Notes: generated from the letters alone by a model not told the origin. A DNA stretch of 64,000 nt from Parcubacteria group bacterium (GCA_943350175.1 CALQZX010000005.1:150-64149); one strand, 5' to 3'. Shown: positions 19,077 to 54,237, counted from the stretch's first letter. Program-made: numbers and translations.

Positions 19077-19085
19077 AAAAATAAT

Positions 19086-19475
19086 TTATCTCTTGTTTAT
19101 TTTTTTCATGAAACTGTTGAGAGGTGCAATTGGAACTATCTTGCCGCTTTTTCCAGAGTCTTTTTCCCATTTCATCAACATAGAACCCTTCATTGCGCTT
19201 CTTATAGATTCAATACGCTTATTTTGAGGAATATTTTCTTTTCCGTATTGAGTGATGTCAATTGCGCCTAAATGTTCAAGCATCAATTTGTGAAAGTCAT
19301 CGTTTTCCATTGCTTCTTTTTTTATTTTTCTTTTCCATTCAAAATCAAGAAATTCTTCATATAATTTAGCTAACGTGCTTGGAATGCCAGCGGTATTCAT
19401 ATATTCTAAAACGAATTGATGGAAATCATTGATATTTGTCTCTTCTTGCCATGGATATTTTTGTTCTTCAGTCAT
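19086..19475 (-). CDS. hypothetical protein
   Basis: 129-aa ORF with no recognisable motif. Coding-like composition. Confidence 0.4.
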   Translation of the reverse strand: MTEEQKYPWQEETNINDFHQFVLEYMNTAGIPSTLAKLYEEFLDFEWKRKIKKEAMENDDFHKLMLEHLGAIDITQYGKENIPQNKRIESIRSAMKGSMLMKWEKDSGKSGKIVPIAPLNSFMKKINKR

Positions 19476-19849
19476 ATGTTTTTAATCTTTCATTTTTTAC
19501 ACTCAATCGCTTATTTTCATGTGTTACTTTTTGCAATTGCATCCTCTAGAGCATTTTTTGAGTTTTCTGCAGCTATTTTTCCAGCTTCTGCTCAACGCAT
19601 GTTTAAATCTAATTCTTCTCTCATTTCTTTCCAGTTTGGTTCAGCCTTTTTAGCAGGTTCGGCTTCCATAGCTTTTCTTATAGCTTCGCTAATTTTTTTG
19701 TACTCAGACTTTAATGTTTCAGTAATTTTTTCAATATAATTAATTTTTTCTTTACCTGCACATCTTAGTACTATAAACTATAGGATACTTGTCAAATTAT
19801 CTATCAATTTATTGACATTTTGACAGATAAGCAGTAAAATAGATCATTC

Positions 19850-22461: not shown

Positions 22462-22512
22462 AAGTGCTTCTAATCAGAAAAAAGCAAAATATGTTAAAAT
22501 CTATAGCTAGTT

Positions 22513-23769
22513 ATGCTAGACATTAATTTCATTCGCCAAAACAAAGATCAGGTCAAAGAAGCCTGTGTGAATAAAAATCTTGATTCTTCAATTATCGATC
22601 AACTTCTATCTGTAGATGAAGAGCGTCGTAATTTGCAAAAGGAAATGGATGCTTTGCGCAGTGAAGCTAATACTAATGCCGATTCCATCAAGAAAATGGT
22701 GGCAGAAGGTGGTCGTCCAAGTGTTGATTTAGTTGAAAATGGCAAATCCATTAAGGCTAAATTGAAGGATCTCGAGCCAAAAGATAAAGAAATTAATGAA
22801 AAGTTTTTGGAATTAATGAGCGGTGTGCCAAATGTGCCCGCAACCGATGTACCAATTGGTAAAGATGAATCTTTCAATCAAGTAGTGAGAGAAGAAGGTA
22901 GTAAGCGTGAATTTGACTTTACTCCAAAAACTCATGAAGAAATCATGAAAAATTTGGATTGGTTGGATACGGAGCGAGCCACCAAAATTGCAGGATTCAG
23001 AGGATATTTTCTCAAGAACGATGCTCTTTTTCTGGAGCAAGCTTTGCTCCTTTATGCTCTTTCGATCATGAAGAAGCATGGTTTTTCTGCCATGTCGGCG
23101 CCAATTTTGGTCAATAAAGAAGCGATGTTTGGTACAGGTTATTTCCCATGGGGAGCTGAAGATCATTATTACACTCAAGATGGTCAAATTTTGGCTGGCA
23201 CTGCTGAAGTGGCCCTGACCTCTTATTATGGTGGCGAATTGCTGCGTGAAAAAGACCTTCCTATTAAAATTTGTGGTATTTCGCCATGTTTCCGTCGTGA
23301 AGTTGGTTCTTACGGCAAAGACACCAAAGGCATTATTCGAGTTCATCAATTTAACAAAGTTGAGCAAGTGGTTCTGACTGTAGCAGATGAAGAAGTCACG
23401 AGAGATTGGCATACCAAGATGGTGGGCTTTTCTGAAGAATTGCTCAAAGGCTTAAATTTGCCTTATCAAGTGCTCCTGATGTGTTCTGGAGATATGGGTG
23501 CTGGTCAGCGCAAGAAATATGACATCGAAACTTGGTTCCCTGGTCAAGCTAAATATCGCGAGACTCACTCTGCTAGTTACTTCAACGATTTTCAGGCTCG
23601 TCGCCTCAACATTCGCTATCAAGCTAAAGACGGCAGCACTAAATTTGTTTACACTTTGAACAACACTGTAGCCGCTTCCCCACGTTTATTGGCAGCAGTG
23701 ATTGAGAACTATCAGCAAGCTGATGGCTCGGTGGAAATTCCAGAGGTTTTGAAGCCTTTTATGGTCTAG
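22513..23769 (+). CDS. serS: seryl-tRNA synthetase
   Basis: N-terminal coiled-coil MLDINFIRQNKDQVKE… and class II core motifs (FRRE, GAGQRK…). Confidence 0.9.
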   Translation: MLDINFIRQNKDQVKEACVNKNLDSSIIDQLLSVDEERRNLQKEMDALRSEANTNADSIKKMVAEGGRPSVDLVENGKSIKAKLKDLEPKDKEINEKFLELMSGVPNVPATDVPIGKDESFNQVVREEGSKREFDFTPKTHEEIMKNLDWLDTERATKIAGFRGYFLKNDALFLEQALLLYALSIMKKHGFSAMSAPILVNKEAMFGTGYFPWGAEDHYYTQDGQILAGTAEVALTSYYGGELLREKDLPIKICGISPCFRREVGSYGKDTKGIIRVHQFNKVEQVVLTVADEEVTRDWHTKMVGFSEELLKGLNLPYQVLLMCSGDMGAGQRKKYDIETWFPGQAKYRETHSASYFNDFQARRLNIRYQAKDGSTKFVYTLNNTVAASPRLLAAVIENYQQADGSVEIPEVLKPFMV

Positions 23770-27755: not shown

Positions 27756-28395
27756 AAATATGTCAAATGACCGAGAAAAAATGGTTAGTCAAGAAAAAAT
27801 TGCTGAATTAGTTAAGCTAATTTTGAGAGTTGGCGGAGTAGGAGTTTTTGTTAATCTTTTTAAAGATGCAAAAATTACTTGTAATGGAGAAATCATGGAG
27901 ATTAATGGTGGTCTGCCTTACCAACAAATAACTGGTGTTTATGAATTAGCTGGTCCATTAAAAATTTTTTCCAACGAAGCAATGGATAGGACAATGTCTT
28001 TTGTTGAAGGAGACTTGTTTAATAGAGGAACTGAGCAACTTGGTATAGCAATAGCAGACATGCAGCTTGGAGAACTAAGAAAAGAGATGTTGGCTTTTAA
28101 TATAATATTTGAAACTAAGGATTTTCCTTCAAAAAATGTTTTTATAATTACCTTGCCAAAAGTTGATGGTGAAGAATTAATTTCCACTTTAAAACAAGAT
28201 CCAAGTGTTGCAATTAAACTTTTTGAATCCATAGTTACTGGTCTCGATGAGGCTAGTCCAAGGGCTGCAAACGATGCTTACAAAATGATAATTAGTCTTC
28301 AAAAAAGATTGTTTGGAATTCCAGTTCCGCTCCGACCTCAATATAGGAAAAAAGAGGTTTTGACAGGAAGTTTAATTAAAGAAGAAGATAAATAG
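27739..28395 (+). CDS. hypothetical protein (overlaps secA stop by 17 nt)
   Basis: 218-aa ORF with no recognisable motif. Confidence 0.4.
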   Translation: MSIRSKNMSNDREKMVSQEKIAELVKLILRVGGVGVFVNLFKDAKITCNGEIMEINGGLPYQQITGVYELAGPLKIFSNEAMDRTMSFVEGDLFNRGTEQLGIAIADMQLGELRKEMLAFNIIFETKDFPSKNVFIITLPKVDGEELISTLKQDPSVAIKLFESIVTGLDEASPRAANDAYKMIISLQKRLFGIPVPLRPQYRKKEVLTGSLIKEEDK

Positions 28396-28397
28396 AA

Positions 28398-29063
28398 ATG
28401 CTCTTATCTGTTCTGTCTAAAACTATCAATAATAAGCCAGACATAATTCAGTTTGCCAAAGATCGCAAATATGAAGAAGCTTGGATAATTCCGTTAGAAT
28501 CAAACAAGCCTTCAGAGCAAGGCATTTCTGCCTATTTAAGTAAAAATAACTACGAGCTTCTAATTGTTGAGTATATTTGGAACAGCAAGATCGATAATGA
28601 ACGTTTTGTTTTAACTGTTTTTCTAGATCAAAATTGTCAGCTTCGAGACCATAAAATTTTCATAGATTTATGTTTAGAGATGTTTTTTAATTACGATACT
28701 TTTACTAACTTTATTGAGCTTTTTGATCAAAAAATTATTGGTCGATCATATTTGTTTTTGAATTCACCAGAAACTTGCAACATGAGCATTTTTAATTATT
28801 GGCTATCGGTCGGGCCAGTTGACTTGTGGAATCATGGCGAAGTTTATAATTTTGAAGTCATAAAACAAAAAATTGAATCTAGACCAGAAGTAGAAAAAAC
28901 AAAATTAAATTATCAAGGCTTGCTCTTTCGATTTAATATTTCAGGAAAAGAGAATGGACCTATTTATGGTTTAAAAACACCGTGTTGTCAAAAAGACGGT
29001 GAAGAATGGACGGTTGATTGCGATTTGGTGAATGAGTGGATGAAAAAGATAATAAAAATATGA
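28398..29063 (+). CDS. hypothetical protein
   Basis: 221-aa ORF, 2 nt after the preceding gene. Cys-rich C-terminus (TPCCQKDGEEWTVDCD). Confidence 0.4.
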   Translation: MLLSVLSKTINNKPDIIQFAKDRKYEEAWIIPLESNKPSEQGISAYLSKNNYELLIVEYIWNSKIDNERFVLTVFLDQNCQLRDHKIFIDLCLEMFFNYDTFTNFIELFDQKIIGRSYLFLNSPETCNMSIFNYWLSVGPVDLWNHGEVYNFEVIKQKIESRPEVEKTKLNYQGLLFRFNISGKENGPIYGLKTPCCQKDGEEWTVDCDLVNEWMKKIIKI

Positions 29064-29638
29064 AAAACGCTCTTATCCTCCATGGCACAGGCGGTTTTCC
29101 CACAGAAAATTGGTTTGATTGGTTGCGCCAAGAATTGGAAAAATTAAATTTCACTGTAGCTGTCCCACAGTTGCCAAGTTGTGATCGCCCAAATATTAAA
29201 ACTTACAATAATTTTTTACTCGAAGAAAAATCCTACAAATTTAATGAAGAAAGTATTTTAATTGGTCATTCTTCTGGAGCAGTGGCAATCTTTGGCTTAC
29301 TTCAAGCTTTGCCAGAATCAGTTAAGGTTGACACCTGTTATTTAGTTGGTGCTTTTAAAGATAATCTAAATTGGGATTCTCTAAATGGTTTGTTTGAGGA
29401 ACCTTTTGACTTTGCCAAAATCAAAAATAAAGCCAAGCATTTTGTTTTTATTCATTCAGATAATGATCCTTACTGTCCACTAGAACATGCTAAATTTTTA
29501 GCGAAAGAATTAGACGGTGAGTTAATAATTAAAGAAGGTCAAAAACATTTTAGTGTTGGGACCTTCGGTAAAGAATATAGAAAATTTCCATTTTTACTTG
29601 AATTAATTGAGAAAGGTCAAAATGCAATTAAAAAATAA
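29036..29638 (+). CDS. alpha/beta-fold serine hydrolase (RBBP9/YdeN family)
   Basis: ALILHGTGGFPTENWF…, GHSSGA nucleophile elbow, and the short ~200-aa fold typical of PF06821. Confidence 0.6.
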   Translation: MDEKDNKNMKNALILHGTGGFPTENWFDWLRQELEKLNFTVAVPQLPSCDRPNIKTYNNFLLEEKSYKFNEESILIGHSSGAVAIFGLLQALPESVKVDTCYLVGAFKDNLNWDSLNGLFEEPFDFAKIKNKAKHFVFIHSDNDPYCPLEHAKFLAKELDGELIIKEGQKHFSVGTFGKEYRKFPFLLELIEKGQNAIKK

Positions 29639-30323
29639 ATCAGTAGTAATTACTGGCGGCTCAGATGGACTTGGATTCTCTTTGGCAAAAGTACTATCGG
29701 CGAAAGGTGCTTTAGTTAATCTAATTGCTAGAGACAAAAAAAAGCTTGACTCGGCAGTTAAAGAGTTGGGCTCAAATGCTAATGGTTTTGTGGCAGATGT
29801 GAGTAACTGGCAGGAAATTGAGAGAGTCGCACAAAAGATCGAATCGATCGATATTTTGATTAATAATGCTGGAGTTTGGATTGAGGGATCTCTTCTTGAT
29901 TGCGAAATTGCTAGGATTGACCAAGCAATCGACATTAATTTAAAAGGTGTAATTTATGCAACTAAAGCCTTTTTGCCAAAGTTAAAAAAAGGAACAGAAG
30001 CTCATGTCCTAAATGTGGTTTCAACTTCTGGTCTAAAAGGTAGAGACGGTCAAAGCGTTTATTGTGCTAGCAAATTTGGCGTCTCAGGTTTTACAGAAGC
30101 CTTAAAAATTGATTTAGAAAAAACAAACGTCAAAGTGACTGGCTTTTATCCAGGTGGAATGAAAACTCATTTGTTTGATAAGGCCGGCAATCCAAAAGCC
30201 AATCAGGACTGGATGAACACTGACAAAGTAGCAGAAATTATTGTCTTTATGCTAGAACAAGATATGAATATGGTCATGGATCAGGTGGTGCTTAATAAGC
30301 GCATGACGCAAACTTCTAACTAA
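29607..30323 (+). CDS. short-chain dehydrogenase/reductase (SDR)
   Basis: TGGSDGLG Rossmann motif, NNAG, and catalytic YxxxK (YCASKFGVSGF). Confidence 0.8.
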   Translation: MRKVKMQLKNKSVVITGGSDGLGFSLAKVLSAKGALVNLIARDKKKLDSAVKELGSNANGFVADVSNWQEIERVAQKIESIDILINNAGVWIEGSLLDCEIARIDQAIDINLKGVIYATKAFLPKLKKGTEAHVLNVVSTSGLKGRDGQSVYCASKFGVSGFTEALKIDLEKTNVKVTGFYPGGMKTHLFDKAGNPKANQDWMNTDKVAEIIVFMLEQDMNMVMDQVVLNKRMTQTSN

Positions 30324-42761: not shown

Positions 42762-42837
42762 TGGCCTCGTGGTGTAGCGGTTAACATGTCTCCCTGTCAC
42801 GGAGAAGACCGTCGGTTCGAATCCGATCGAGGTCGCC
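42762..42837 (+). tRNA. tRNA-Asp (anticodon GTC), CCA encoded
   Basis: Cloverleaf folded by hand. Acceptor GGCCTCG/CGAGGTC, D-stem GTGT/ACAT, anticodon arm TCTCC-cTGTCac-GGAGA, T-arm GTCGG-TTCGAAT-CCGAT, discriminator G + CCA. Confidence 0.85.
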
Positions 42838-44472
42838 ATTTCGGATTTCTTGCTTACTTAGTTTGAAATACTCGGCTAAGTAAGCGGTTCCATCTACAAT
42901 TTGATTGTAAGTTGGCAATTCATTAAACATCATTCCAAAAAGTTGCTCTTGTCTACGCACATTCTCGGTGTCTATTAGCAGTTCTTCCAAGTGTTCCATG
43001 AAATAGCGAGCATATTGGAAACCAAGCTTAGCATTGAGTTCTTTTTTAACTTGTTGGTCTCTCATTTCTCTTGCTGATTTTAGCTTTTTTTCTACTCCCT
43101 CATAGTCCTCTTCTAAGGCCTTTCTGACTAATTCGCTATCTACTTGTTTGATGCGTTGAAAAATGGCGTTTTGCTCGGCTAGGAGGTCTGAGACGTACTT
43201 CTCTTTGTTCTGGCTTTCTTCAATTACATCAGATCTTTTTTTATCCCATTCTTCATAGAACAAAGCCTCCAGCAGCTTATGAAAATTTTCATCAAATTTT
43301 ATTTGTTTGATAAATTCATAAACATTCTTATTAAATTCGCTGGCTCCTTCAGACCACTGCTTATGACCTTGGTGGCAATGATAATATTTATACTTTTTTC
43401 CACCCCTACCTTTTGAAGCACTCCCTCTCAATTCGTGATTACAGATTGGACAAAGAACGACTCTTTTAAATGGGAATTCAGGATTGTGCTTCATGATGCG
43501 CTTTTTGGTTCTCTCTGTTTGCGCCTCATTCCCGTAAAAGATTTTGACCTCATCACCTGAAATTTCCAGTAAGATCTTATCTTTATTAGCTTGATTAAAT
43601 AACTCTGCATCAATAAAACCCGGAAATTTGGCTTTAACAGGCTGGTAATTTGTCCATTTTTCACAAAAGACTCCTGTGTAAATAGTTCTAGTCAAGAACT
43701 CAGCTATTCTGCTGGCACTTGCTTGATTTCCGCCGATCTTGCCAATTGGTTTTTTAGTTCTTCTATCACGCTTATTTTTAATTCTAGACCTATATCCAAG
43801 TCTATTTATTTCATTTGCTATTTCTGGTAAATTAAAGCCCTTAGCTTTCATTTGAAAAATCTTCTTTATAAAAAAAGACTCTTTTGGGTTTTCTATTAGA
43901 ATAAATCGTTTACCACTATCAGTTTCTATCCTCTTAGATTCAAATCCAAATGCCGAGCCATGTATACGATAACCTTGGCGAGTGTAAGTAACTTCAGCTC
44001 CTATTGTTTGAGTTAAGATGTTTCTTCTATCAGCTTTGGCTTGTTCTGCTGCCTCTATTTCAGCTGGTTCTGATGGTGAATATTTACTCCAATCATACTC
44101 AATTCCTAAATGATCCAGAGTGTTTATTTTTTCTCCGATAGTGTTGTAAACATCTGTTATTCTTACGCCATTTTGCTCAAGTTTTGTTTTCCATTTTAAG
44201 TAATCTACTCCACCACCTCTAGTGAATCTACTAATATTTTTAAATAACAATATATCGATTTTGTTCTCTTTATTGATGACATGGTCTAAAACTTCTTGGA
44301 AGAACTCTCTTTCTTTTAAAGCTCCACTTTCGATCAAAGAGAAAACTTTCTTTTCCTCTAAATTTTCTTTTTTTATATAGTGGCGGCACTGTTCTAACTG
44401 ATGCTCTAGACCGTCTCCTTCGGAAGCTTGTTTTGGTGATGATGCTCTAACGAGGATTACTGTGTTTTTCAT
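42781..44472 (-). mobile_element. large serine recombinase (resolvase catalytic domain + recombinase domain + zinc ribbon); 3' end reads antisense through tRNA-Asp 3' half
   Basis: Catalytic VILVRASSPKQ (Ser nucleophile) and ISRFTRG, recombinase domain, zinc ribbon CPICNHELRGSASKG…YKYYHCHQG, and a C-terminal coiled-coil. The last 19 codons are the reverse complement of tRNA-Asp positions 20-76. Confidence 0.8.
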
Positions 44473-45269
44473 TAGCAGTTCTCCTTATAGCTAACTTCTA
44501 AAACTTTGTCCACCATACAGGCGGCCAATTGTCGAAGTTTGGAAATTATTTTTTCAATTTCATTGTTGGACAAATTATTGAATTTGTTCCCCAACAATTT
44601 ACGTGCTAATTCTATCGTCATCTGGGACCTTTCCCAGTTAACGAAGAGATGAACTGCAAAAAAACCTGATCAATCAACAATCGATTTGTCTACAAAAACT
44701 AATAACCCATAACGAGCAATAAATAGTTTGATTATGTTTGTTATTAATTAATGAGAGAACAGAATTGTGTGATTGACCCAATTATTAATTGATCTAAAAA
44801 TACTTTTATAAATATTCTTAGATCAATTCTTCTGTTAACTATATTGTCTGGTTTTGAGCAGTAATTTGATGCCATCTAAATAGTATCAAATGGTCGCCCA
44901 AAACCTTTCAATTATTAATTATTACTAATTTGGTTTATATCACCCCTAATTTTTTTTGCAAGCTATTAAAAAATAATTAAATTTGTTTTAAAAACCCCAA
45001 CCCACAACAAGCTATTGGCTAAGGTTTTTACTGCTCTCTATAAACCTGCCTTGGTACGCGATATTTTTCAGTGTAGAAACTATCCTATAATTTATAAAAT
45101 AATTTACCTTATTTATGTAAAGGAATGTCCATAGATAGAGGACGTCCTTTAGGCCTCTTTAGGTGTAGGAGGGGTGTAATCTTTGTCAGACGATTGATGA
45201 TTTGTTATCTAGATAAGGAGCTAAGCAAGCCGGCCGGCAGGTGGCTACACTCATGTTTTAAATAAGCGC

Positions 45270-45641
45270 TTATTTTAGTATCTGTTGTTTTAACAGAACC
45301 AGCTTTGTTCGTTTAACAAATAGCCTTTTAAGAAATTCATAATAATCTAGATCTACTTTTTCAACTGCTTTTTCTAAGGCTTCATTAATTCTCTTAATAT
45401 CCAAAGATGGCAAAGTATTAATCTTTAAATTCAATTGGCGTAATGCATATTTATTCTCAACTCTCATAGCGTATTGTTCTGTTGTTTCTAACTCATCAAG
45501 AAATGGAGGGGCTGGATCAAAGAAACAAAGTATTTTAAAGATGAGAGTATGAATGAAAACCTTATTTACCATGCCGGGGATAACGTATTCGGCAATAATA
45601 AAACTCGAATTGCCATCGTGTTTAATCCTTTTTATTTTCAT
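45270..45641 (-). CDS. hypothetical protein (island)
   Basis: 123-aa ORF. AT-rich codon usage, distinct from the core genes. Confidence 0.3.
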   Translation of the reverse strand: MKIKRIKHDGNSSFIIAEYVIPGMVNKVFIHTLIFKILCFFDPAPPFLDELETTEQYAMRVENKYALRQLNLKINTLPSLDIKRINEALEKAVEKVDLDYYEFLKRLFVKRTKLVLLKQQILK

Positions 45642-45918
45642 GGTTTTTCATTTTGAACAAAATATTATCAATTCTTTCTTTCTTTTCTTGTTCATTTTTT
45701 GCATATGTTCTATAAAAAAAAAGTCCAGACAGCCACATAAAAATTGTTCCTCCATCATAAATACCGTGGCTCATGGCATAAAGTCCAATAAGAAATGAAA
45801 TTGAACAAAAAACACCAGACGTTTCAGATTTCGGTATTTTATCTTTGTGCAATTTGCTTATGACTAATGGTCCAACGCAGATAAGTATAATTATTATTAA
45901 TAAAGTTTCTTCTGTCAT
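45622..45918 (-). CDS. small hypothetical membrane protein (island)
   Basis: 98 aa with two TM helices. Overlaps the downstream ORF by 20 nt. Confidence 0.3.
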   Translation of the reverse strand: MTEETLLIIIILICVGPLVISKLHKDKIPKSETSGVFCSISFLIGLYAMSHGIYDGGTIFMWLSGLFFYRTYAKNEQEKKERIDNILFKMKNHENKKD

Positions 45919-45964
45919 AATGATGTTTATTATATACCACCAGTAAGTCGACCACAGGTAAAGA

Positions 45965-46201
45965 TTGCATCAAAATTTACCCATGGTCGACAAGCAAGAA
46001 TTATCAGCAAGGTTGGGTCAAAGATTGGCGGAACTGAGATCTCTTAAGGGATTTACTCAGGAGAGGTTGGCTTATGATGCTGAACTTAATAGGGCTTATG
46101 TTGGCTATATTGAGCGCGGAGAAAGAAATCCATCTGTTGTGACGATGGCAAAGATAGCGCTTGCCTTAAAAGTTGAGTTGCATGAGCTTTTTAGGTTATA
46201 A
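45965..46201 (+). CDS. XRE-family HTH regulator (island)
   Basis: LGQRLAELRSLKGFTQERLAYDAELNRAYVGYIERGERNPSVVTMAKIALAL is an HTH_3 motif. Confidence 0.65.
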   Translation: MHQNLPMVDKQELSARLGQRLAELRSLKGFTQERLAYDAELNRAYVGYIERGERNPSVVTMAKIALALKVELHELFRL

Positions 46202-46267
46202 ATAATTGTTTATTTAAGATTAATATCCACAATTCAAGTACGACCCAATTTTTGAAAATTTATCCAA

Positions 46268-47920
46268 TTAGGAGTACATTTCAGCTGACTTCAAAGCTAT
46301 TCTATTTATTGATTGACGTATATCGAATATTGGATCTGAAACATCTACATACGGATCATATTTATTCAATTCAAATGCTAGAGCGATAGCATACTCAGTG
46401 AAGGCAACTTCATATGCCAGGCGCCTAAATACAGGATCTTCAGGAGAACGATCTTTTTTAGCTGCAATAATTTGAGGATGGTCGAGATTGATGTAAATAG
46501 TTCTAAATTCTGATTTATATTCTGCTCTATCTGGCATATTTGATCCTAAATGGGAAAATTCAATGCTAAATCCGCCTCCACTTCTCTTTTTTTTGCCATC
46601 ATCGCCAACATAATGTCCTTTTGAATCTCCCATCACTTTAGGCTTTACTATTGGGTTTAATTCCGGTGGCTCCTCGTCTTTATTCATGGAGTTTTGTACC
46701 TCTTTTAGGTTTAAAAAACCAACTTCTCCAATGTCATTTTCTATAGTTGCTGGATTGTTTCCTCCAAATAGAAAATCATTGGTTCCTTTAGTTTTTTCTC
46801 CAAATTCTATATTTCCTGTGTCAGGACCGTGTTTTAGCTCAGTTGTTTGTATTTTTTTTAGTTTCATCCTAAATGAATCAAAATCTGAATTTATAATATT
46901 TTCAATCTTTGATGCTTCATCTCGTAGTCTGTTAGCTTCTTCTGAAGCTTTTTCATTTTTATATTCTTCAACAAGTTCTTTTCTAACTTTTTCAAACAAC
47001 GGTCCAATAAATTGATACACTTCATTTACAATTTCGTTTTGTGGATTCAACTTCATTGATCTAGAAGCATCAAATGCTGAGGGTACTGAGTTGTCATCTG
47101 CGAGAGTCTCGACATCAATTTCTCCAAAAATAAAATTTGCCATTTCTTTACCTTCAAATCCGAGCATTGATGTTTCAAGCCATACTCCATTGGAAAAAAT
47201 TGAAATTCCACGAAAATCTTTCTCTAATGGTGACCTTGAAACCCTGATAATTAGTTTTGTTTTTCCAACGCGAGACATTTTTTTATTAAACGTTTCAAAA
47301 ACTTCTTCTCTTTCAATAGATGGTTCTATGAATTCACATAGGTGATTGTTAACTATCACAGAGACATCTTTTGGCCATTTTACAAGGTGCCTCTCTATAT
47401 ATTCAATTACACTTGATTGATCAATTAATTTTAGGTGAATTTTCTCAATCTCGACAAGTGTTCCATCATTTAAATCAGTTGGCTTTTCTTTGTAGATAGT
47501 TGTAACAGGCACAGGACTTCCAGATGAGCAATTTTCTAAATCTTTTCTTAGTAACTGAACGGCAGATGTTTTGCCATTTTTTGTTGTAGTAATTTTTAAA
47601 GAGTCGGCAATTCCAAAAGCCGCTGATTTTCCAGTTCCAAAATAACCTCTTCCAGGTTGTCCTGTTTTTCGATCTTGATTCTCTCCATGCATAATGAAAT
47701 AGTTTTCTAAGTCAGCCCAATTCATTCCTCTTCCATTATCTAGAATACTAATGCTTTTGTTTTTACTATTTAGGGATACTCTGATTTTTGGACTTACACC
47801 CTTATTAACATATTGAAGGCTATTCGAAACATACTCCCAAACGACCAGGCGTTCATTTTTAAACATTCCTGCTGATTGAAGCAAGTCTCTGGATATGTGA
47901 GATTTAACTAATATTGGCAT
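46268..47920 (-). CDS. GHKL-superfamily (HATPase_c_3 / MORC-like) ATPase with ~350-aa C-terminal extension
   Basis: Bergerat-fold motifs: N box EYVSNSLQY, G1 box ILDNGRGM, G2 box GQPGRGYFGTGKSAAFG. No histidine-kinase HisKA, gyrase or MutL C-terminal domains. Confidence 0.65.
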   Translation of the reverse strand: MPILVKSHISRDLLQSAGMFKNERLVVWEYVSNSLQYVNKGVSPKIRVSLNSKNKSISILDNGRGMNWADLENYFIMHGENQDRKTGQPGRGYFGTGKSAAFGIADSLKITTTKNGKTSAVQLLRKDLENCSSGSPVPVTTIYKEKPTDLNDGTLVEIEKIHLKLIDQSSVIEYIERHLVKWPKDVSVIVNNHLCEFIEPSIEREEVFETFNKKMSRVGKTKLIIRVSRSPLEKDFRGISIFSNGVWLETSMLGFEGKEMANFIFGEIDVETLADDNSVPSAFDASRSMKLNPQNEIVNEVYQFIGPLFEKVRKELVEEYKNEKASEEANRLRDEASKIENIINSDFDSFRMKLKKIQTTELKHGPDTGNIEFGEKTKGTNDFLFGGNNPATIENDIGEVGFLNLKEVQNSMNKDEEPPELNPIVKPKVMGDSKGHYVGDDGKKKRSGGGFSIEFSHLGSNMPDRAEYKSEFRTIYINLDHPQIIAAKKDRSPEDPVFRRLAYEVAFTEYAIALAFELNKYDPYVDVSDPIFDIRQSINRIALKSAEMYS

Positions 47921-47922
47921 AT

Positions 47923-48495
47923 TTAAGACCTTAATTTTTGTGCTATCGGCGCTAAGATTTTAATAAGTGGACCAAGCTCTGGGTCGTTTGAAAAAAGATT
48001 TTGAATTTTTGTGATTTTATTGATTCTAGTTTGGCCATCGATGTAATTATTTAAGCGAAAGAAATCATCTGCCATGGTTTTTGAAATTATCGACAGATCA
48101 TGTTCATTGTGAGATAAATAGTAATGATAAGCATCTGTATTCATCAGCCTATCTTTTTCTCTTTGAATCTGAGCTTGCTCTTTATCTGGTCTTTTTTTAA
48201 TATATCCCGACCATTTTTCAGGCAAATTATTTTTGGAGAATTTCAATCCAATTGGAGATAACATCCAACCATTTTTATGAGAACCAACAACGTAATTGTC
48301 GATATTTCCAGCGGCGGCGATAGCTTTTCTAACTGACTCTAGATCAATATTTTGTTTAAATTTCCTCCAAGAAAATATTCCTGGCGCAATTTCCGCTACC
48401 TTCATAGCAATGTTCTCAGTATCAACTGATTCTTTAACTCCATTAAGTGCGTACAAGGCTAAAGTGACAAGTTGTTTTTGATTTAGTTCACTCAT
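47923..48495 (-). CDS. hypothetical protein, co-transcribed partner of the GHKL ATPase (2-nt spacing)
   Basis: 190-aa ORF immediately upstream on the same strand. Possible winged-helix-like N-terminus. No catalytic motif recognised. Confidence 0.35.
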   Translation of the reverse strand: MSELNQKQLVTLALYALNGVKESVDTENIAMKVAEIAPGIFSWRKFKQNIDLESVRKAIAAAGNIDNYVVGSHKNGWMLSPIGLKFSKNNLPEKWSGYIKKRPDKEQAQIQREKDRLMNTDAYHYYLSHNEHDLSIISKTMADDFFRLNNYIDGQTRINKITKIQNLFSNDPELGPLIKILAPIAQKLRS

Positions 48496-48523
48496 AATTA
48501 ATATTAATAGTTGTATTTATACG

Positions 48524-50704
48524 TTGTATCATATAATACAACTATTGAATATGAAAATGGAATACCCATCTAGAAAATCACCTCTCGTTCCAAAGCCGCT
48601 TCTTTCAGTTTTAGAAAAAATTATTATTCCAGAGGAGATTTGTCAAAAGCATGGCATTAAATTTAATAGCAATATTTTAGACATTGCTCAGATCCAATTG
48701 CTGGATTTATCGGCAGATGCCATAGAGGATCTTGGGAGATTTGTTGCAGCATGTGTTGGTGAAAAAAATAGTGAACTTAAGAAAATTAATGGCATGATAT
48801 CTTCAATTTCTTTAAAAGCTAAATTTGTTATGTCTAAAATTAATATTCGTAATAAAAATTCTCTCATGAGATCTGGGTTTAAAGATTCAGATGATTTTTC
48901 TCAAATTCCACTTTCAAGCCTATTTAAAGTTAAGAATCTTGGTCCATTGGGAATATTGGAAATATTTTCAGTTCTATATTTATTTACTGATAAAAACTCT
49001 TATGATAATAAAAATAACGACCTAGTGTTTTCTAAAGCCCTTTCGAATTTAGCTTTAGAGTTATCAAAAAAAGATTGGGCAACGAATGTCTACATAAATG
49101 ATCCAAGAATTGCAGACGATTTAGAATTGCTAGATATGGGATTTGAAAATTTAACTTTAGCTGAGGTTGCTAAAAAAATTGAATCTTCAGCTCATCAAGT
49201 TGAAACAGTGCAATCAAAAAAATATTTACTTAGAAGTTTTATTTTAAAAAATGAACAAAGGTTAAATTTTAATTTAAAACAAGAGGTTGTTGAAATTATT
49301 GAATTCATTGAAACAAACTTTAAGTATAGGCAAATAGTGACTGCCAGGTTGGGATTGGATGGAGAGGATCCTATAACGCTAGAAGAAGTAGGACAAAAAA
49401 TGGGAATTACGCGCGAACGAGTTAGGCAAATTGAGGCAAAAACTATAAAAAAAATTAAAAACTATCTTCCTATTTGGACCCCTGTATTGGACAAAGCAAT
49501 AAAAATAATCTCAAAATATTCCTTAATTCATGAAAATAAACTTCAAATGGTGTTACTTAAAGAGAAAGTTGTCGCAGAAAGGTTTTCAATAAAATCAATT
49601 CAAAAAATAGCAGAAGTTTTTAGTAGAAATATTAGAATTGAATTTGATGCAGAAACAAAGCTAGTTGGTTCTAATGAACTAATTCAATATGTTCCAAAAA
49701 TATTGGGAGTGATTATTAGATTAATTGATCATTGGGGTGCACTAAATATTGATAATGTAGTTTTAAAGTTGGAACAAGATGGGATAAAAGTAAATAGTCA
49801 GCATTTAGTAGAAATACTCGAAATTAATAAAGATATCTGTTGGTTAGACGATGATAAAAAATGGTTTTGGATAAAAACGCGAAATAGTAGGAACAGGGTA
49901 TTAAACTCTATTGAGAAAATAATGTCTGTGGCTGGAGAAATTAATCTTGGAGATTTAAGAAATGGAACAGGTCGCAGCAATAGAATGCATGGCGTTAGAT
50001 TGCCAAGTAAAATTTTGCTTTCTCTTTGTTTGTCGTCAGGCAAATATATTGAGCTAGAAGGTAAAAGGATAGGTGGAATTAATCTACCAGATTGGGGTGA
50101 AACACTAACAGGTGTTGAAAAAACACTTGTTGAAATTTTATTTAGAAATGGATTTGTAATGAAAAGGGAAAAGCTTGAAGAAGCAGCAATATCTTCTGGA
50201 ATAAACAAATCAACATTCTATGTTTATCTGGGTTATTCACCAGTAATTCAAAGATATGCTCATGGAGTCTATGGTTTAAGAGGGGCTTCTATTAATGCAG
50301 CTAAAGTTAAATCTCTAATTCCTCAGCTTATTAGAAAAGGTAAGTCCATTCAGGACTATGGATTTACTGATTCCGGAAATCCATGGATAGGATTTAAAAT
50401 GTCACGCTCCTCCACAGCAAGTGGAGTTTTAGGTTCTCCAAGTTCATTTTCGAGATATATTATCGGTTCATATAAACTCATCACTGAAACAAAAGAAGTA
50501 GTTGGGACACTTGTTGTAAAAAGTAATAATATGTGGGGATTATCTCCATTTTTCAGAACATGGGGAGTTGAAAGCGGTGATTACATAGTTTTGGAATTTA
50601 AAAAAAGTAATGATACTGTATTAGTGACGGCAGGAGATCAAGAATTACTTGGTTGCTATCAGAACAAAGAAGAATTCCAATTTGTAGAGCAAGTGCTTAT
50701 TTAG
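48524..50704 (+). CDS. large hypothetical protein with embedded sigma-70 region-4-like HTH
   Basis: Residues ~283-312, DPITLEEVGQKMGITRERVRQIEAKTIKKIKN, match the sigma70_r4 consensus (TLEEVG…TRERIRQIE.KAL.KL). The rest is unrecognised. The true start is probably at 48551/48557 (MKMEYP…). Confidence 0.45.
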   Translation: MYHIIQLLNMKMEYPSRKSPLVPKPLLSVLEKIIIPEEICQKHGIKFNSNILDIAQIQLLDLSADAIEDLGRFVAACVGEKNSELKKINGMISSISLKAKFVMSKINIRNKNSLMRSGFKDSDDFSQIPLSSLFKVKNLGPLGILEIFSVLYLFTDKNSYDNKNNDLVFSKALSNLALELSKKDWATNVYINDPRIADDLELLDMGFENLTLAEVAKKIESSAHQVETVQSKKYLLRSFILKNEQRLNFNLKQEVVEIIEFIETNFKYRQIVTARLGLDGEDPITLEEVGQKMGITRERVRQIEAKTIKKIKNYLPIWTPVLDKAIKIISKYSLIHENKLQMVLLKEKVVAERFSIKSIQKIAEVFSRNIRIEFDAETKLVGSNELIQYVPKILGVIIRLIDHWGALNIDNVVLKLEQDGIKVNSQHLVEILEINKDICWLDDDKKWFWIKTRNSRNRVLNSIEKIMSVAGEINLGDLRNGTGRSNRMHGVRLPSKILLSLCLSSGKYIELEGKRIGGINLPDWGETLTGVEKTLVEILFRNGFVMKREKLEEAAISSGINKSTFYVYLGYSPVIQRYAHGVYGLRGASINAAKVKSLIPQLIRKGKSIQDYGFTDSGNPWIGFKMSRSSTASGVLGSPSSFSRYIIGSYKLITETKEVVGTLVVKSNNMWGLSPFFRTWGVESGDYIVLEFKKSNDTVLVTAGDQELLGCYQNKEEFQFVEQVLI

Positions 50705-51075
50705 AAGTTATTGAGATTTATGACTGTGAGTAATCGCTTAGCTTTTTAATATGTTTCTATAAACATATAGGTAATATCTAACCTAAATTAAGATCAAACC
50801 CTACTTCCTCAGGCGTAAACCAATTCCCCATCACATTTAAAATCTTCTCAAGTGACTGACTTAAATTTTCCACCCAATTTATATCTGGTTCGCCAAGTAA
50901 AAGAAGGACGTCAGAAATGGCGTCTTTTTTTGTTTATGATCTTAAATCTGAGTCGGACGGCGAAACTAGTTCGCGACGGAAAGTGAATCCGATTTTTGGT
51001 GAATACGACTCTTTATCGTTATTTGTGATATATTTTAATTGTTTTGTGAACACAAGCAATTAAAATGAAGGATTT

Positions 51076-51381
51076 TTGATGTGCGAAGATGATTCTAAAC
51101 AGGAAAGTATATTGCTGGGGCAACTAGATAGAACTAATCCAGCGACACGTGCAGAGCAGCCTTCTCAAGAAATTTTAACTGAAATGACCAAGCTTTTATT
51201 GGCAAGTAATACGTTTATAGAGTGGAATGCCTTCATATCAAGTATTATTTCAAGAAATAGAGGAATTATTCCACAGTCTTTGCTTAATGAAATCGCTCAG
51301 CCTGGTTCTGCACTTCAGAATCATCTCAACGATTTAAAAATTAAAGAATTTGGCAACACTTTTTCAAGAAAAAAATATTAA
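51076..51381 (+). CDS. doubtful small ORF at island edge
   Basis: 101-aa ORF with no motif. Confidence 0.2.
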   Translation: MMCEDDSKQESILLGQLDRTNPATRAEQPSQEILTEMTKLLLASNTFIEWNAFISSIISRNRGIIPQSLLNEIAQPGSALQNHLNDLKIKEFGNTFSRKKY

Positions 51382-51397
51382 AATATTTATAATTAAT

Positions 51398-51471
51398 GCG
51401 ACCGTAGTTCAGCGGTAGAATGCAAGCTTCCCAAGCTTGAGGTGAGGGTTCGACTCCCTTCGGTCGCTCCA
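51398..51471 (+). tRNA. tRNA-Gly (anticodon CCC), CCA encoded
   Basis: Acceptor GCGACCG/CGGTCGC, anticodon arm CAAGC-ttCCCaa-GCTTG, T-arm GAGGG-TTCGACT-CCCTT, 3' TCCA. Confidence 0.85.
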
Positions 51472-51472
51472 G

Positions 51473-51811
51473 ATGAATAAAAAAATATTAGTTTCAACAT
51501 CGGCTATCATTTTTTCCTGCTTAGCACTATTGCTATTAAATTCGCAGTCTCTTTTACTTTGCTCAACCCTAATCTTGTTGGCTTTTGCAAAACACAAGAT
51601 TTATCCAATTAAAAAAGAATTATTTTGGTATTTATTAGTTGGATTTGGAGGAGCATTTGTTGAAATTATTTTAGTAAATTTTGGAAATGCTTGGAGTTAT
51701 TCAGCTCAGCATCTTTTCAATATTCCAATTTGGATGCCATTTTTTTGGGCAACATTAGGGACTACAATAATATCGTTATACGAAGGAATTAATCTTAAGG
51801 AATCTAAATGA
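51473..51811 (+). CDS. small hypothetical membrane protein (3 TM)
   Basis: 112-aa hydrophobic ORF starting 2 nt after tRNA-Gly. Overlaps the next gene by 4 nt. Confidence 0.35.
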   Translation: MNKKILVSTSAIIFSCLALLLLNSQSLLLCSTLILLAFAKHKIYPIKKELFWYLLVGFGGAFVEIILVNFGNAWSYSAQHLFNIPIWMPFFWATLGTTIISLYEGINLKESK

Positions 51812-52392
51812 GACATCACCAAGTCGCAAAATTAGTTGAACAAGCTTATCTTTCTTCCAAGCAAAACATCGCTCTTTGGATGTGGCAAAATCATTTGCAG
51901 TTTGTAGCTCAAAAAGCTTCGGAACTTTCAGACAAATTTAACGCCAATGCAGACTTAGCTGTTGCTGGAGCTTTTTTACATGACTTTGGCGATGCTTTTG
52001 TCAGTCGTCACGCTGATAACCATGAAGAAATCTCTAAGCAAGAATCCATTAAAGTTTTACAAAAGGCAGACTATTCCTCACAAGAAATTCAAGAAATCTT
52101 AGAAAAAATTATCGCTCCCCACTCCTGCTACGAAGGAAATATGCCAGAAACTTTGGAGGGCAAGGTTTTGGCAACTGCTGATGCGCTCGCTCATTTGACC
52201 ACTGATTTTTATGTCCAGTTCGCTTGGAAAAATATGCCGGACGGAAAATCTTATCAAGAGTTCTTGGTTTGGGTCGGTGAAAAACTTGAGCGAGATTTCA
52301 ACGATAAAATCTTTTTTGAAGAAATCAAAGATGAAGTGCGAGAAAAATATTTAGCTTTAAAATTAGTATTTAGTTCTTCAAAAATGCTTTAG
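51808..52392 (+). CDS. HD-domain phosphohydrolase
   Basis: AGAFLHDFGDAFVSRHADNHEE (H…HD…D) metal-ligand pattern. Confidence 0.6.
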   Translation: MRHHQVAKLVEQAYLSSKQNIALWMWQNHLQFVAQKASELSDKFNANADLAVAGAFLHDFGDAFVSRHADNHEEISKQESIKVLQKADYSSQEIQEILEKIIAPHSCYEGNMPETLEGKVLATADALAHLTTDFYVQFAWKNMPDGKSYQEFLVWVGEKLERDFNDKIFFEEIKDEVREKYLALKLVFSSSKML

Positions 52393-52398
52393 TTTCTC

Positions 52399-53085
52399 TT
52401 ATCTAATTCTCTCTCCAGTCCCACCATCGTAGGCGACTAAATCTTCAGGTCTAGATGAAGTAGATTCAATAATCGAGCGCTGTTTGGTGAAATATGCTTC
52501 GTTTTCGCGATAAAACTGTTCATCATTGGCATAAGGAACCGCTCCGTCTGGATATCTTGCAAATTCTTTTTTGAACAAATCTGTGATCAACTTTTCTCTT
52601 TCAGGCAGAACTAGTCCATTTGCAGGATTACTTAATGGATTTGCCTCGTAGGAATAACCCTGCCCAAAAAATTTATGGAGTATTGCTTCGATGCGTGGGT
52701 AATGTTGAGTATCAGAATTATATGTAAACCTCCTCCATTCAGGATGATATTCTCGAATATATTTAAGCATTGCGCCTGCTTCAGTGGCTGTATCAAACCC
52801 GGCTTTCATTGGAGTTACATTAGTAAAACCGTCGTAGCCTGTTAATAAACGTGATGTAGTGATGGACATAGATTCATCTGGATAATTTTTACCAGTGTGA
52901 TAATTATGTTGTCCACCACCAACTAATATTGGAAAATCACTACTAATCATTCCCTCATCTCGTAATCTATAAATTTGAAGTATGCGACCGATGCTTAAAT
53001 GGTTCGCCTGGTATTTTTCTTGAAGTACATCTAGAGTCACTCCACCCATAAAACACAAAATTGCATCAGAATCAAGTTTGCTCAT
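52399..53085 (-). CDS. hypothetical protein
   Basis: 228-aa ORF with coding-like composition and no confident motif. Weak DUF218-like GGG segment. Confidence 0.4.
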   Translation of the reverse strand: MSKLDSDAILCFMGGVTLDVLQEKYQANHLSIGRILQIYRLRDEGMISSDFPILVGGGQHNYHTGKNYPDESMSITTSRLLTGYDGFTNVTPMKAGFDTATEAGAMLKYIREYHPEWRRFTYNSDTQHYPRIEAILHKFFGQGYSYEANPLSNPANGLVLPEREKLITDLFKKEFARYPDGAVPYANDEQFYRENEAYFTKQRSIIESTSSRPEDLVAYDGGTGERIR

Positions 53086-53159
53086 ATCTGTATTTTAAAT
53101 TAAAATAACTCTAGAGTCATCACAAATATCATCCGGAACTCTATTAATAAAATTATAAT

Positions 53160-54077
53160 ATGCAAAATTTCATCACCCTCAGCAATGGCCAGCAAATGCC
53201 AAGCCTCGGCCTTGGTACTTGGAGGTCTTTGACTGGAACTGGTAAAACAGCGGTCAAATACGCCATAGAAAAAGTCGGCTATCGTCATATCGATTGCGCC
53301 AGTGTCTATAAAAATGAAAAAGAGATTGGCGAGGCTTTTAATGAAGTTTTTAGCAGTGACAAAATCAAAAGAAGCGAAGTTTTTATTACCAGTAAATTAT
53401 GGTGTACCGATCATCACAGCGATAATGTAGAAAAAGCTTGTCGCCAAACTTTGGCAGATCTAAAGCTTGAATATTTAGATCTCTATTTAATGCATTGGGG
53501 AATTGCTTTTGAACATGGTGGCGATCTAGAGCCAATCGGCAGCGATGGCGTTATCAAAACAGCAGCAGTTTCTACGCAGGAAACTTGGCAAGCTATGGAA
53601 AAGTTGGTGGAAAAAGGCTTAGTTAAAGCAATCGGTGTCGCTAACTTCACAACCGCGATGTTAATTGATCTGCTTGGCTACGCTAGGATTAAACCAGCTG
53701 TCAATCAAATTGAAATTCACCCATACAATAGTCAACCTGAATTGGTTTCTTTTTGCCAAAAAAACAATATTGCAGTAACCGCCTATTCTCCACTTGGTTC
53801 TGCTGGAGATTTGGACAACAAACCTTTGAGTGATGAAGTTGTTGTAGAAATCGCCGGAACACACGCTAAATCCCCTGCACAAATTTTAATTAAATGGTCA
53901 ATGCAGCGCGGTCTAATTGTCATTCCAAAAAGTATCAAAGAATCACGCATGGATGAAAACTTCAATGTCTTTGATTTTGAATTAACTGATGAAGAAATGA
54001 ACAGAATTAATAAGCTAAATAAAAATCATCGTTTTATAAATCCAATTGAGTGGTGGGGCGTGCCATATTTCAATTAA
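53160..54077 (+). CDS. aldo/keto reductase
   Basis: LGLGTWRS, catalytic tetrad context (D…Y…K…H), and the IPKS motif of the AKR family. Confidence 0.85.
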   Translation: MQNFITLSNGQQMPSLGLGTWRSLTGTGKTAVKYAIEKVGYRHIDCASVYKNEKEIGEAFNEVFSSDKIKRSEVFITSKLWCTDHHSDNVEKACRQTLADLKLEYLDLYLMHWGIAFEHGGDLEPIGSDGVIKTAAVSTQETWQAMEKLVEKGLVKAIGVANFTTAMLIDLLGYARIKPAVNQIEIHPYNSQPELVSFCQKNNIAVTAYSPLGSAGDLDNKPLSDEVVVEIAGTHAKSPAQILIKWSMQRGLIVIPKSIKESRMDENFNVFDFELTDEEMNRINKLNKNHRFINPIEWWGVPYFN

Positions 54078-54130
54078 TTGTAGTAAAATTATCCGTTGAG
54101 CGTGATCATTTTTGTTTAAATTTTACAAAG

Positions 54131-54203
54131 TGCCAAAGTAGCTCAGCTGGTAGAGCAACGGTATCGTAAACCGTAGGTCGTGGGTTCGATCCCCACCTTT
54201 GGC
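54131..54203 (+). tRNA. tRNA-Thr (anticodon CGT), CCA not encoded
   Basis: Acceptor GCCAAAG/CTTTGGC, D-arm GCTC-AGCTGGTAG-AGC, anticodon arm ACGGT-atCGTaa-ACCGT, T-arm GTGGG-TTCGATC-CCCAC. Confidence 0.8.
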
Positions 54204-54237
54204 TCAAAAGTAGTAATATAAAATATAGTAAAAACCT

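Follow-up and report, generated by a model that had tools for sequence, protein, structure and literature searches.

A serine-recombinase island at a tRNA-Asp gene carries a conserved three-gene unit of p190, a GHKL ATPase and BIG that may be directed at invading DNA

The MZA system, MzaABCDE, was reportedly described by Gao et al. in 2020. Judged by analogy, this system and the paraMORC restriction-modification (R-M) modules come closest in function to a set of three genes, termed p190, GHKL and BIG (the triad), which lies on an 8-kb island between tRNA-Asp and tRNA-Gly in the window, i.e., the whole 64,000-nucleotide stretch of DNA analysed (Parcubacteria group bacterium, GCA_943350175.1, CALQZX010000005.1:150-64149); the comparison places the triad in neither group. 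The mzaA gene product has been called a sigma factor (PMC9523054). The paraMORC modules were predicted by Iyer, Abhiman & Aravind in 2008 with SF2 helicases and restriction endonuclease (RE)-fold, HNH, Vsr and TIR domains as partners, and p190 and BIG partners are unmentioned in that paper (PMC2292703). In Shedu type I-D, VcSduA combines an N-terminal GHKL ATPase with a DUF4263 nuclease, and the GHKL part has been proposed to control DNA-directed defence (PMC12137116). The joint best explanation of the locus, to which we assign a probability of about 0.7, is a serine-recombinase island carrying a triad that would be directed at invading DNA.

The island itself is best compared with the elements mobilised by large serine recombinases. 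Integrases of the phiC31/Bxb1/A118 type, the SCCmec Ccr proteins, TndX of Tn5397 and XisF possess the same resolvase domain with the motif R-x-S-S-x-x-Q as the island's enzyme, and such elements likewise combine the recombinase domain with a zinc ribbon rich in Cys and an extended helical region at the C-terminus, a lone recombinase gene at the edge of the element, and very short identity between the junctions. The NCBIfam equivalogs for XisF, CcrA/B and IS607, however, match the island recombinase just locally and far under their cut-offs. The island differs from known elements in that its recombinase open reading frame (ORF) runs over the left junction (attL), so that the C-terminus alters on excision, and in its small size (8 kb) and the lack of any phage, conjugation or mobilisation gene. 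Moreover, it targets a tRNA gene at the 3' end, unlike the elements of the usual serine integrases; tRNA 3' ends are habitual targets of tyrosine rather than serine integrases. It is thus an element of the ordinary kind with two unusual traits, a serine recombinase acting at a tRNA 3' end and a host of the Candidate Phyla Radiation (CPR) type.

Insertion of the island into tRNA-Asp

A scan of species-representative genomes with the neighbouring HtpX yielded 80 related loci, most of them in metagenome-assembled genomes (MAGs) labelled Pacebacteria, Microgenomates group, Woesebacteria etc., i.e., Patescibacteria (CPR). In the ten closest loci (HtpX identity 79-88%), gatCAB, htpX, lemA, tRNA-Asp, tRNA-Gly(ccc), tRNA-Thr(cgt), p254 and p370 occur in this order, and the window's tRNA-Asp is 92-97% identical to the tRNA-Asp of the ten relatives. 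The spacer between tRNA-Asp and tRNA-Gly measures 85-1540 bp in all ten, as compared to 8560 bp in the window. None of the island proteins had a tblastn match in the 80 loci, except for the 18-residue tail of the recombinase, which matches the antisense strand of tRNA-Asp in the island-free locus L003.

On the left side, homology with the relatives breaks off at 42836-42841. In L012, L014, L003 and L005, a terminator hairpin is located directly 3' of tRNA-Asp, and a homologous hairpin is found in the window at 50900-50931. The post-tRNA sequence of the relatives recurs at 50883-50985, behind the tRNA-end remnant GGTTCGCCA; residues 64-157 of L012, comprising the tRNA 3' end and downstream sequence, align to 50883-50970. 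Since homology stops on the left and the tRNA remnant and terminator reappear on the right, the island spans about 42839-50895 (8.06 kb). The preliminary description of the block, made from the window sequence, had placed its end at tRNA-Gly; the junction (attR, 50887-50895) actually lies some 500 bp upstream of this gene, and 50896-51397 is ancestral host spacer, including a 101-codon ORF of doubtful reality.

The boundaries were taken from the relatives because no long att repeat was found: direct repeats did not exceed chance expectation, and the full tRNA 3' end is not repeated. The two junctions have TCGCCA in common, with 10 of 14 positions identical when upstream bases are counted, corresponding to a repeat of 6-9 bp. 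Serine recombinases act at a 2-bp crossover, which predicts very short identity between junctions, and the observed identity fits an enzyme of this class. The attP site is reconstructed as …ATATCTGGTTCGCCA joined to TTTCGGATTTC…, and attB as …GATCGAGGTCGCCA followed by AGTAAAAGAAGG…; the predicted junctions are GATCGAGGTCGCCA-AGTAAAAGAAGGACGTC for the empty site and ATATCTGGTTCGCCA-TTTCGGATTTCTTGC for the circle.

The island has a GC content of 0.332 versus 0.387 in the rest of the window, and all of 160 equal-sized control windows lie above the island's value (mean 0.386, sd 0.013, minimum 0.362). At third codon positions, GC amounts to 0.21-0.31 in the island genes and to 0.31-0.42 in gatCAB/htpX/lemA. 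A contrast in AT-richness with both flanks, as proposed at the outset, holds for the block overall, but is sharp on the left side only, because the genes at 51473-53085, just 3' of the block, are likewise AT-rich.

The block is a site-specifically inserted and precisely delimited mobile island, which combines presence/absence at a conserved locus, a duplicated tRNA 3' segment at its far end and deviant composition. Its initial description as a horizontally acquired integrative element is borne out by the conserved backbone in the ten relatives, the absence of its genes from the 80 loci, the displaced terminator and the outlying GC. As the comparison with the relatives shows, a circular element was integrated in the final bases of tRNA-Asp by the recombinase encoded at its left end, whereby the original tRNA 3' remnant and terminator were pushed 8 kb downstream to attR; the tRNA stays intact because the element supplies a replacement 3' end at attL. 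That the block is instead ancestral and was lost in the relatives is scarcely credible: the block is represented by one genome only and its excision has yet to be seen, but ten species-level relatives (80 loci in all) lack every block gene, and the block opens with a recombinase precisely at the tRNA 3' end, has the tRNA terminator duplicated in position behind the tRNA-end remnant, and is a GC outlier.

The features of the locus, in window coordinates, are as follows.

42763-42838, plus strand: tRNA-Asp(gtc) (ARAGORN, Rfam), the integration target, with its 3' end rebuilt by the island (attL side)
42781-44472, minus strand: large serine recombinase, 563 aa (Pfam Resolvase and Recombinase, PHROG integrase)
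42833-42838: attL core TCGCCA, in which the two final bases of the acceptor stem precede the discriminator base and CCA
44472-44621, minus strand: 49-aa ORF (ORF list), candidate small partner protein
44622-45269: AT-rich non-coding spacer with hairpin and 12-nt repeat
45270-45641, minus strand: o123, small ORF overlapping o98
45622-45918, minus strand: o98, small ORF, three-helix membrane protein as judged by eye
45919-45991: divergent control region between o98 and XRE, with candidate operators
45965/45983-46201, plus strand: XRE regulator, 72-78 aa (Pfam HTH_3, 1.3e-10)
46268-47920, minus strand: GHKL ATPase, 550 aa (HATPase_c_3, E 6.6e-17)
47923-48495, minus strand: p190, 190-aa ORF two bases upstream of the GHKL start
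48496-48550: divergent promoter region of p190 and BIG, 55 bp, with candidate operator
48524-50704, plus strand: BIG, 726-aa ORF (Pfam Sigma70_r4 at residues 269-312)
50887-50895: attR GGTTCGCCA, a remnant of the tRNA-Asp 3' end that marks the island's right edge
50900-50931, plus strand: displaced ancestral tRNA-Asp terminator hairpin (terminator scan), in host DNA beyond the island
51398-51471, plus strand: tRNA-Gly(ccc) (ARAGORN, Rfam)
54132-54205, plus strand: tRNA-Thr(cgt) (ARAGORN, Rfam)

The recombinase, spacer, small ORFs, XRE, GHKL, divergent ORF with sigma region 4 and tRNA genes noted in the preliminary description were all found in place. The recombinase gene indeed lies at the tRNA-Asp end, although not merely beside the tRNA, which its ORF overlaps by 58 bp.

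The recombinase ORF is full-length and encodes both recombinase domains (Pfam Resolvase, 3.2e-11, residues 5-109; Pfam Recombinase, 1.2e-08, residues 196-297), and it matches the PHROG integrase family at 4.3e-37. The motif V-R-A-S-S-P-K-Q is read at residues 9-16, and a Cys/His-rich zinc ribbon of the form CxxC...C.H (CPIC...YYHCHQGH) is readable, the Pfam model Zn_ribbon_recom itself not being reported. By its domains, length (>400 aa), motif and zinc ribbon, the predicted 563-aa protein fits the large serine recombinases. The last 18 codons of the ORF, where it crosses attL, are antisense tRNA-Asp (42781-42838), and the match of this tail to the antisense tRNA-Asp of L003 shows that the C-terminus is tRNA-derived. 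Because the ORF crosses attL, the protein would receive a different C-terminal end, and a length of 583 instead of 563 aa, if the element closed again into a circle at TCGCCA; such a swap is possibly a built-in difference between the integrated and the excised enzyme.

The start codon of the recombinase gene overlaps the stop of a 49-codon ORF (TAATG), which is missing from the public annotation and could code for a small partner protein or directionality factor. The AT-rich gap between the recombinase gene and the small ORFs comprises 797 bp. Its non-coding part, 44622-45269, contains a hairpin with 19-nt arms (44787-44828) between the copies of an exact 12-nt repeat, CAATTATTAATT (44779 and 44909), and had no match in Rfam.

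Conservation and anatomy of the triad

Each of the seven BIG relatives that were found first lies on a contig with a 190-aa gene and a ~547-aa GHKL gene beside it. The GHKL family is represented below 1e-8 by no fewer than 1798 clusters, of which over 120 are full-length, with identities of 49-63%, and three members on long contigs are accompanied by the same genes. A metagenome scan with the GHKL alignment led, via at least 577 confirmed relatives, to 80 more loci. When ORFs were called in 90 GHKL-bearing loci and searched with phmmer, the gene immediately upstream of GHKL encoded a p190 homolog in 87 of them, and in 77 a homolog of BIG was a neighbour of GHKL; the loci without a p190 or BIG homolog are truncated contigs. 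On this sequence evidence, p190, GHKL and BIG constitute one evolutionary unit. The genes of the GHKL two-gene cassette and of the divergent protein, distinguished in the preliminary description, are present, but together they form a single three-gene unit.

The assumption that BIG is rare, based on seven relatives in the first homology search and on a profile search that did no better, was rejected as an artefact of a word pre-filter swamped by sigma factors, because the locus-based phmmer searches and exhaustive HMMER searches show a large family, the latter with 1202 clusters (50% identity) at E<=1e-30. The triad is colinear (p190-GHKL-BIG) in 56 loci, while BIG is divergent in 18, the window among them. 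When ATPase clades were drawn by identity clustering, the divergent loci fell nearly all into one clade of 20, with L157 outside, and the window GHKL grouped with those of L085, L087 and L092 as a low-GC subgroup. Searches for a fourth conserved gene in the window's subclade yielded only shadow ORFs inside the three genes and one XRE gene in L099.

Triad hosts range in GC from 0.34 to 0.68, with identities of 46-63% across hosts. The closest relative, L092 (GHKL 63% identity, GC 0.37), contains a divergent triad followed by a 415-aa gene and a different large serine recombinase of 530 aa (L092:1207-8534). Since this recombinase and that of the window are unrelated, the triad has come to reside on serine-recombinase islands at least twice. 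No GHKL protein or recombinase match was found among the 2.9 million viral contigs of IMG/VR; phage records contained no triad match, and plasmid records one weak match.

No model in Pfam, PADLOC 2.0.0, NCBIfam 20.0 (June 2026) or PHROGs names any triad protein, and the earlier statement that the cargo matches no named system stands after PADLOC and profile HMM scans of the island proteins. PHROG 6203, a family of unknown function, matches GHKL residues 19-367, and PADLOC-DB 2.0.0 gave only marginal or local matches to the triad, viz. REase_II (1.7e-4), PD-T4-1 (8e-3) and the MzaA helix-turn-helix (3.8e-9). A description of the triad was not found in the literature on MZA, GHKL and MORC defence; a recent description elsewhere is possible.

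The ATP-binding motifs of the Bergerat fold, E29/N33, D61-N-G-R-G-M (DNGRGM) and GTGKSAAFG, are invariant across the GHKL family, and the ATPase is predicted to be active. In the AlphaFold2 model (predicted local distance difference test, pLDDT, 69.7), the GHKL and middle domain (residues 1-280) is followed by a helix of 68 residues, ~85 residues of disordered linker and, at the C-terminus, a conserved domain 100 residues long. This C-terminal domain has the invariant polar residues D480 H481, E504, E509 and E517 and no match in a PDB sequence search. Searches of Pfam, PADLOC, NCBIfam and PDB sequences detected no nuclease domain in GHKL. The p190 stop codon precedes the GHKL start by two bases (TAA-AT-ATG), which suggests translational coupling of p190 to the GHKL gene. 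Although p190 has no match in Pfam or in the PDB sequence search, the conservation pattern of its alignment can be read as an N-terminal winged-helix-like region and a helical C-terminal half.

For BIG, the family consensus and the public gene call make ATG 48551 the most likely start; the 726-aa ORF of the preliminary description is thus present, but the protein probably comprises 717 aa. Its recognisable parts are a helix-hairpin-helix region resembling the RNA polymerase alpha subunit's C-terminal domain (alpha-CTD), sigma-70 region 4 with the -35-recognition helix TRERVRQ almost invariant family-wide, about four winged helices, for which the matches form a long list including APC2, Z-alpha, PadR and MarR, and a C-terminal B3-like pseudobarrel of the B3/EcoRII-N type. 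Unusually long relatives carry extra HA domains only and no enzyme fusions. BIG is a chain of nucleic-acid-binding domains without an enzyme. The divergent promoter region that separates p190 from BIG has two direct copies of the heptamer GTTGTAT (48510 and 48523) and an inverted one, ATACAAC (48536), making up a candidate autoregulatory operator.

MZA, which was compared by way of its PADLOC and NCBIfam models, also pairs a protein containing sigma-70 region 4 with a MutL/GHKL-type ATPase (MzaA to BIG, 5e-16; MzaB to GHKL, 3e-4). The triad matches are local only, however, and remain below 8% of the NCBIfam cut-offs (MzaA, 58.7 bits versus 800; MzaB, 19.1 bits versus 850), and MzaC, MzaD and MzaE are missing from both the island and the conserved triad. 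The paraMORC/BbrUII/HgiDII group shares with the triad a GHKL domain with an S5-type middle domain, intact ATP motifs, patchy spread and frequent methylase neighbours; yet the BbrUII/HgiDII model aligns to GHKL residues 43-168 only (profile positions 37-174 of 659; 58.2 bits versus a cut-off of 550), and p190 and BIG take the place of the fused or neighbouring RE-fold, HNH, Vsr, TIR or SF2 helicase partners, none of which was detected in the triad.

In Foldseek searches with the GHKL model, Hsp90, TRAP1 and GRP94 (E 6e-14) ranked first, followed by MORC2, MORC4 (E 2-5e-12, including DNA-bound MORC2) and GyrB. The Hsp90-type and MORC matches cover the N-terminal ~400 residues, at identities of 12-17% and template modelling (TM) scores of ~0.35-0.40 for a predicted model. 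According to the model, the long helix and separate C-terminal domain of the island GHKL would allow constitutive dimerisation; the CW, coiled-coil-insert and Hsp90 M/C client-binding features are missing.

Other candidates were discarded: Shedu I-D, as the 550-aa GHKL protein contains no DUF4263 or PD-(D/E)xK domain and the triad has three genes rather than one; Dnd/Dpt, BREX and MADS, none of whose PADLOC/NCBIfam models matches; and the anti-sigma kinases, which belong to the wrong GHKL class. A possible further GHKL-based module was seen at L088:13899-17265, downstream of the triad and methylase of that locus, where two HATPase_c-type genes (235 and 509 aa) accompany a 381-aa gene.

Possible functions of the triad

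Scanning of 149 proteins flanking the triad against Pfam revealed ten Eco57I/N6_Mtase-type methylases, six PIN and three Resolvase proteins, and two each of XhoI, Cas1, AIPR, AAA_21, Phage_integrase and rve, the rest being housekeeping-type singletons. PADLOC identified full-length type II methylases, two REase_II, two DrmMI, two Cas1 and two AbiU in the flanks. An OLD-like ATPase-TOPRIM gene lies by the triad of L099, an AIPR gene directly follows the ATPase gene of L105, and L083 has a tyrosine integrase and a TraI-like helicase near the triad. A type II N6-adenine methylase adjoins the triad in 9 of the 20 members of the window's divergent clade versus none of the 56 colinear loci; in two triad loci, the methylase is part of a complete XhoI-type R-M pair, and in others no separate endonuclease was seen. 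Because of the patchy, mobile distribution and these neighbours, defence against foreign DNA is the most likely role, and the triad is probably a conflict or defence system. Defence or addiction had been proposed for the cargo beforehand; the R-M, abortive-infection, toxin and mobile genes in the vicinity speak for this, while recognisable effector domains are wanting and the assignment is inferential.

What the triad might do is deduced from sequence, predicted structure and gene context. The TAA-AT-ATG gap, gene calls that overlap at the corresponding junction of other loci (e.g., L083) and strict co-occurrence suggest that p190, GHKL and BIG act as one DNA-directed complex. BIG, with its succession of DNA-reading domains, would choose the target DNA, and the winged-helix p190 would bridge it to the ATPase, which might act as an ATP-closed dimeric clamp like Hsp90, MORC and MutL. 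The closed clamp could hold on to the DNA, so that this is neither replicated nor expressed, or else activate an unrecognised catalytic site; in the window's clade, the adjacent methylase would mark self DNA. A variant of defence that operates specifically by clamping or silencing is a tentative proposal. Still more speculative, and rather improbable, is nuclease-free immunity, in which BIG finds foreign DNA and loads an Hsp90/MORC-like clamp that silences or immobilises it, as a bacterial counterpart of eukaryotic MORC silencing; such a system would be sufficiently mobile to arrive even in minimal CPR genomes, on a serine-recombinase islet directed at a tRNA gene.

Several observations weigh against a defence island of this kind. 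Most triad neighbours are ordinary housekeeping genes, with a defence share of ~13-16% for which there is no matched background. Profile and fold searches detected no nuclease, TIR, SIR2, HEPN or pore-forming effector domain in the triad. Unlike nine members of its clade, the window contains no methylase, either in the island or elsewhere in its 64 kb, which leaves the discrimination of self from non-self without an account. As to the element, attP and attB are reconstructions that share just 6 bp plus scattered identities and show no convincing dyad symmetry (at most 10-13 of 22 positions), and no recombination directionality factor was recognised in the island. The CPR label of the host, finally, follows the titles of the relatives' MAGs, of which one 84%-identical record says TM6 and many are evidently labelled automatically.

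Somewhat less probable than a clamp is that the triad represents the restriction half of an R-M-like system, with a cryptic nuclease in the C-terminal domain of GHKL or in p190 and a methylase that was lost or is unlinked. The full-length type II N6-adenine methylase (PADLOC MTase_II, E down to 1e-186) beside nine of the 20 clade members, in some cases without another restriction enzyme (L088, L089, L093, L094), argues for it, as do the resemblance of the GHKL N-terminus to the BbrUII/HgiDII enzymes (5.7e-16), the invariant polar residues of the GHKL C-terminal domain, the DNA-recognition fold of the B3/EcoRII-N type at the end of BIG, and the similarity of the neighbouring XRE to an R-M controller protein. 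No nuclease fold or motif, however, was detected in any triad protein; the XRE gene is convergent with the GHKL gene, so that the two cannot be co-transcribed; and the methylase is missing from every colinear triad as well as from the island and the window. As two of the methylase-linked loci already hold a complete XhoI-type pair, methylase adjacency may just reflect the clustering of genes in defence islands.

A role outside immunity, in regulation or chromatin, is unlikely too, whether as a transcription factor complex or as a silencer or organiser of the MORC type by which mobile elements and some chromosomes would control their own genes, even though the triad has features that fit it: its recognisable domains are all DNA binders of the transcription type plus a MORC/Hsp90-like ATPase without an effector, its neighbours are mostly housekeeping genes, and candidate operators are found in its own divergent promoter. 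Core regulators would not be expected to show so patchy a distribution, at 46-63% identity over hosts with GC contents of 0.34-0.68, to be missing from all close relatives and located twice on recombinase islands, or to recur beside R-M, OLD, AIPR, Cas1 and PIN genes, which is the pattern of accessory conflict genes. An RNA polymerase decoy, in which sigma region 4 and the alpha-CTD-like part of BIG mimic the two modules most frequently bound or modified by phage take-over proteins and the capture of such a protein switches on GHKL (guard or decoy immunity), is a decidedly remote alternative resting purely on analogy, as conservation falls on the residues in contact with DNA, which plain DNA binding would predict just as well, the remaining ~400 residues of BIG also form DNA-binding folds, and no downstream effector is known.

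Remaining cargo, variable spots and implications

The other cargo unit, consisting of XRE, o98 and o123, could serve exclusion, addiction or maintenance. Transcription of the XRE gene diverges from that of the o98-o123 operon and converges with that of the GHKL gene, and for this reason its product more likely controls the small ORFs than the ATPase. The o98 product has three hydrophobic helices as judged by eye; neither o98 nor o123 had a match in Pfam, PADLOC, NCBIfam or PHROGs. XRE resembles the controller (C) proteins of R-M systems in that almost the whole length of the PADLOC Control_protein model (positions 13-73 of 74) aligns to it, at 7.7e-19, and in that it has a pair of inverted 7-mers in the promoter region. 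It differs from them in being divergent from two small ORFs instead of co-transcribed with a restriction or methylase gene; a classic C-box was not recognised near it, and the 64-kb window contains no methylase or XhoI-type enzyme with which it would make up a type II R-M system.

The inverted 7-mers, GTCGACC and GGTCGAC (45947-45953 and 45985-45991), are located in a 65-bp control region and are candidate operators. They include two of just six GTCGAC sites in the 64-kb window, which are 39 bp apart here. GTCGAC is also the recognition site of HgiDII/BbrUII, whose ATPase head resembles the island GHKL; this agreement is probably coincidental. Neither GTCGAC nor CTCGAG is significantly avoided in the window.

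Outside the island, the spacer from tRNA-Gly to tRNA-Thr (51472-54131; 20-1140 bp in relatives) also varies. Encoded there are a membrane protein of 112 aa and an HD-domain protein, common only to L004 (HD also in L035), as well as a 228-aa ORF and an aldo-keto reductase which occur in none of the 80 related loci. In 1-kb bins, GC drops to 0.32-0.35 at two further stretches of the window, 19000-23000 and 28000-30000. In the more distant relatives L017, L019, L020, L021 and L024, gatC or gatB is split from htpX or gatA by insertions of 1-3 kb that are absent in the window's genus, so that this conserved run of genes varies at further points.

A large serine recombinase that would be able to target a tRNA 3' end is of practical interest for the discovery of recombinase tools, the more so as a reconstructed attP/attB pair is available. 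The island also indicates that reduced genomes of the CPR/Patescibacteria type do gain accessory conflict modules through integration at specific sites. Should the triad prove to be a defence system, it represents a widespread family, of at least 1200 clusters at 50% identity in hosts of 34%-68% GC, that is overlooked by current annotation tools. It could be a new variant among the GHKL/MORC-type conflict modules, and a categorically new one if it acts without cutting DNA. With no killing or cutting domain, it could then embody a different way to stop invading DNA, in which promoter-recognition domains, borrowed for the purpose, direct clamping or silencing driven by ATP, and, if this is true, it would have a bearing on the origin of the eukaryotic MORC silencers.

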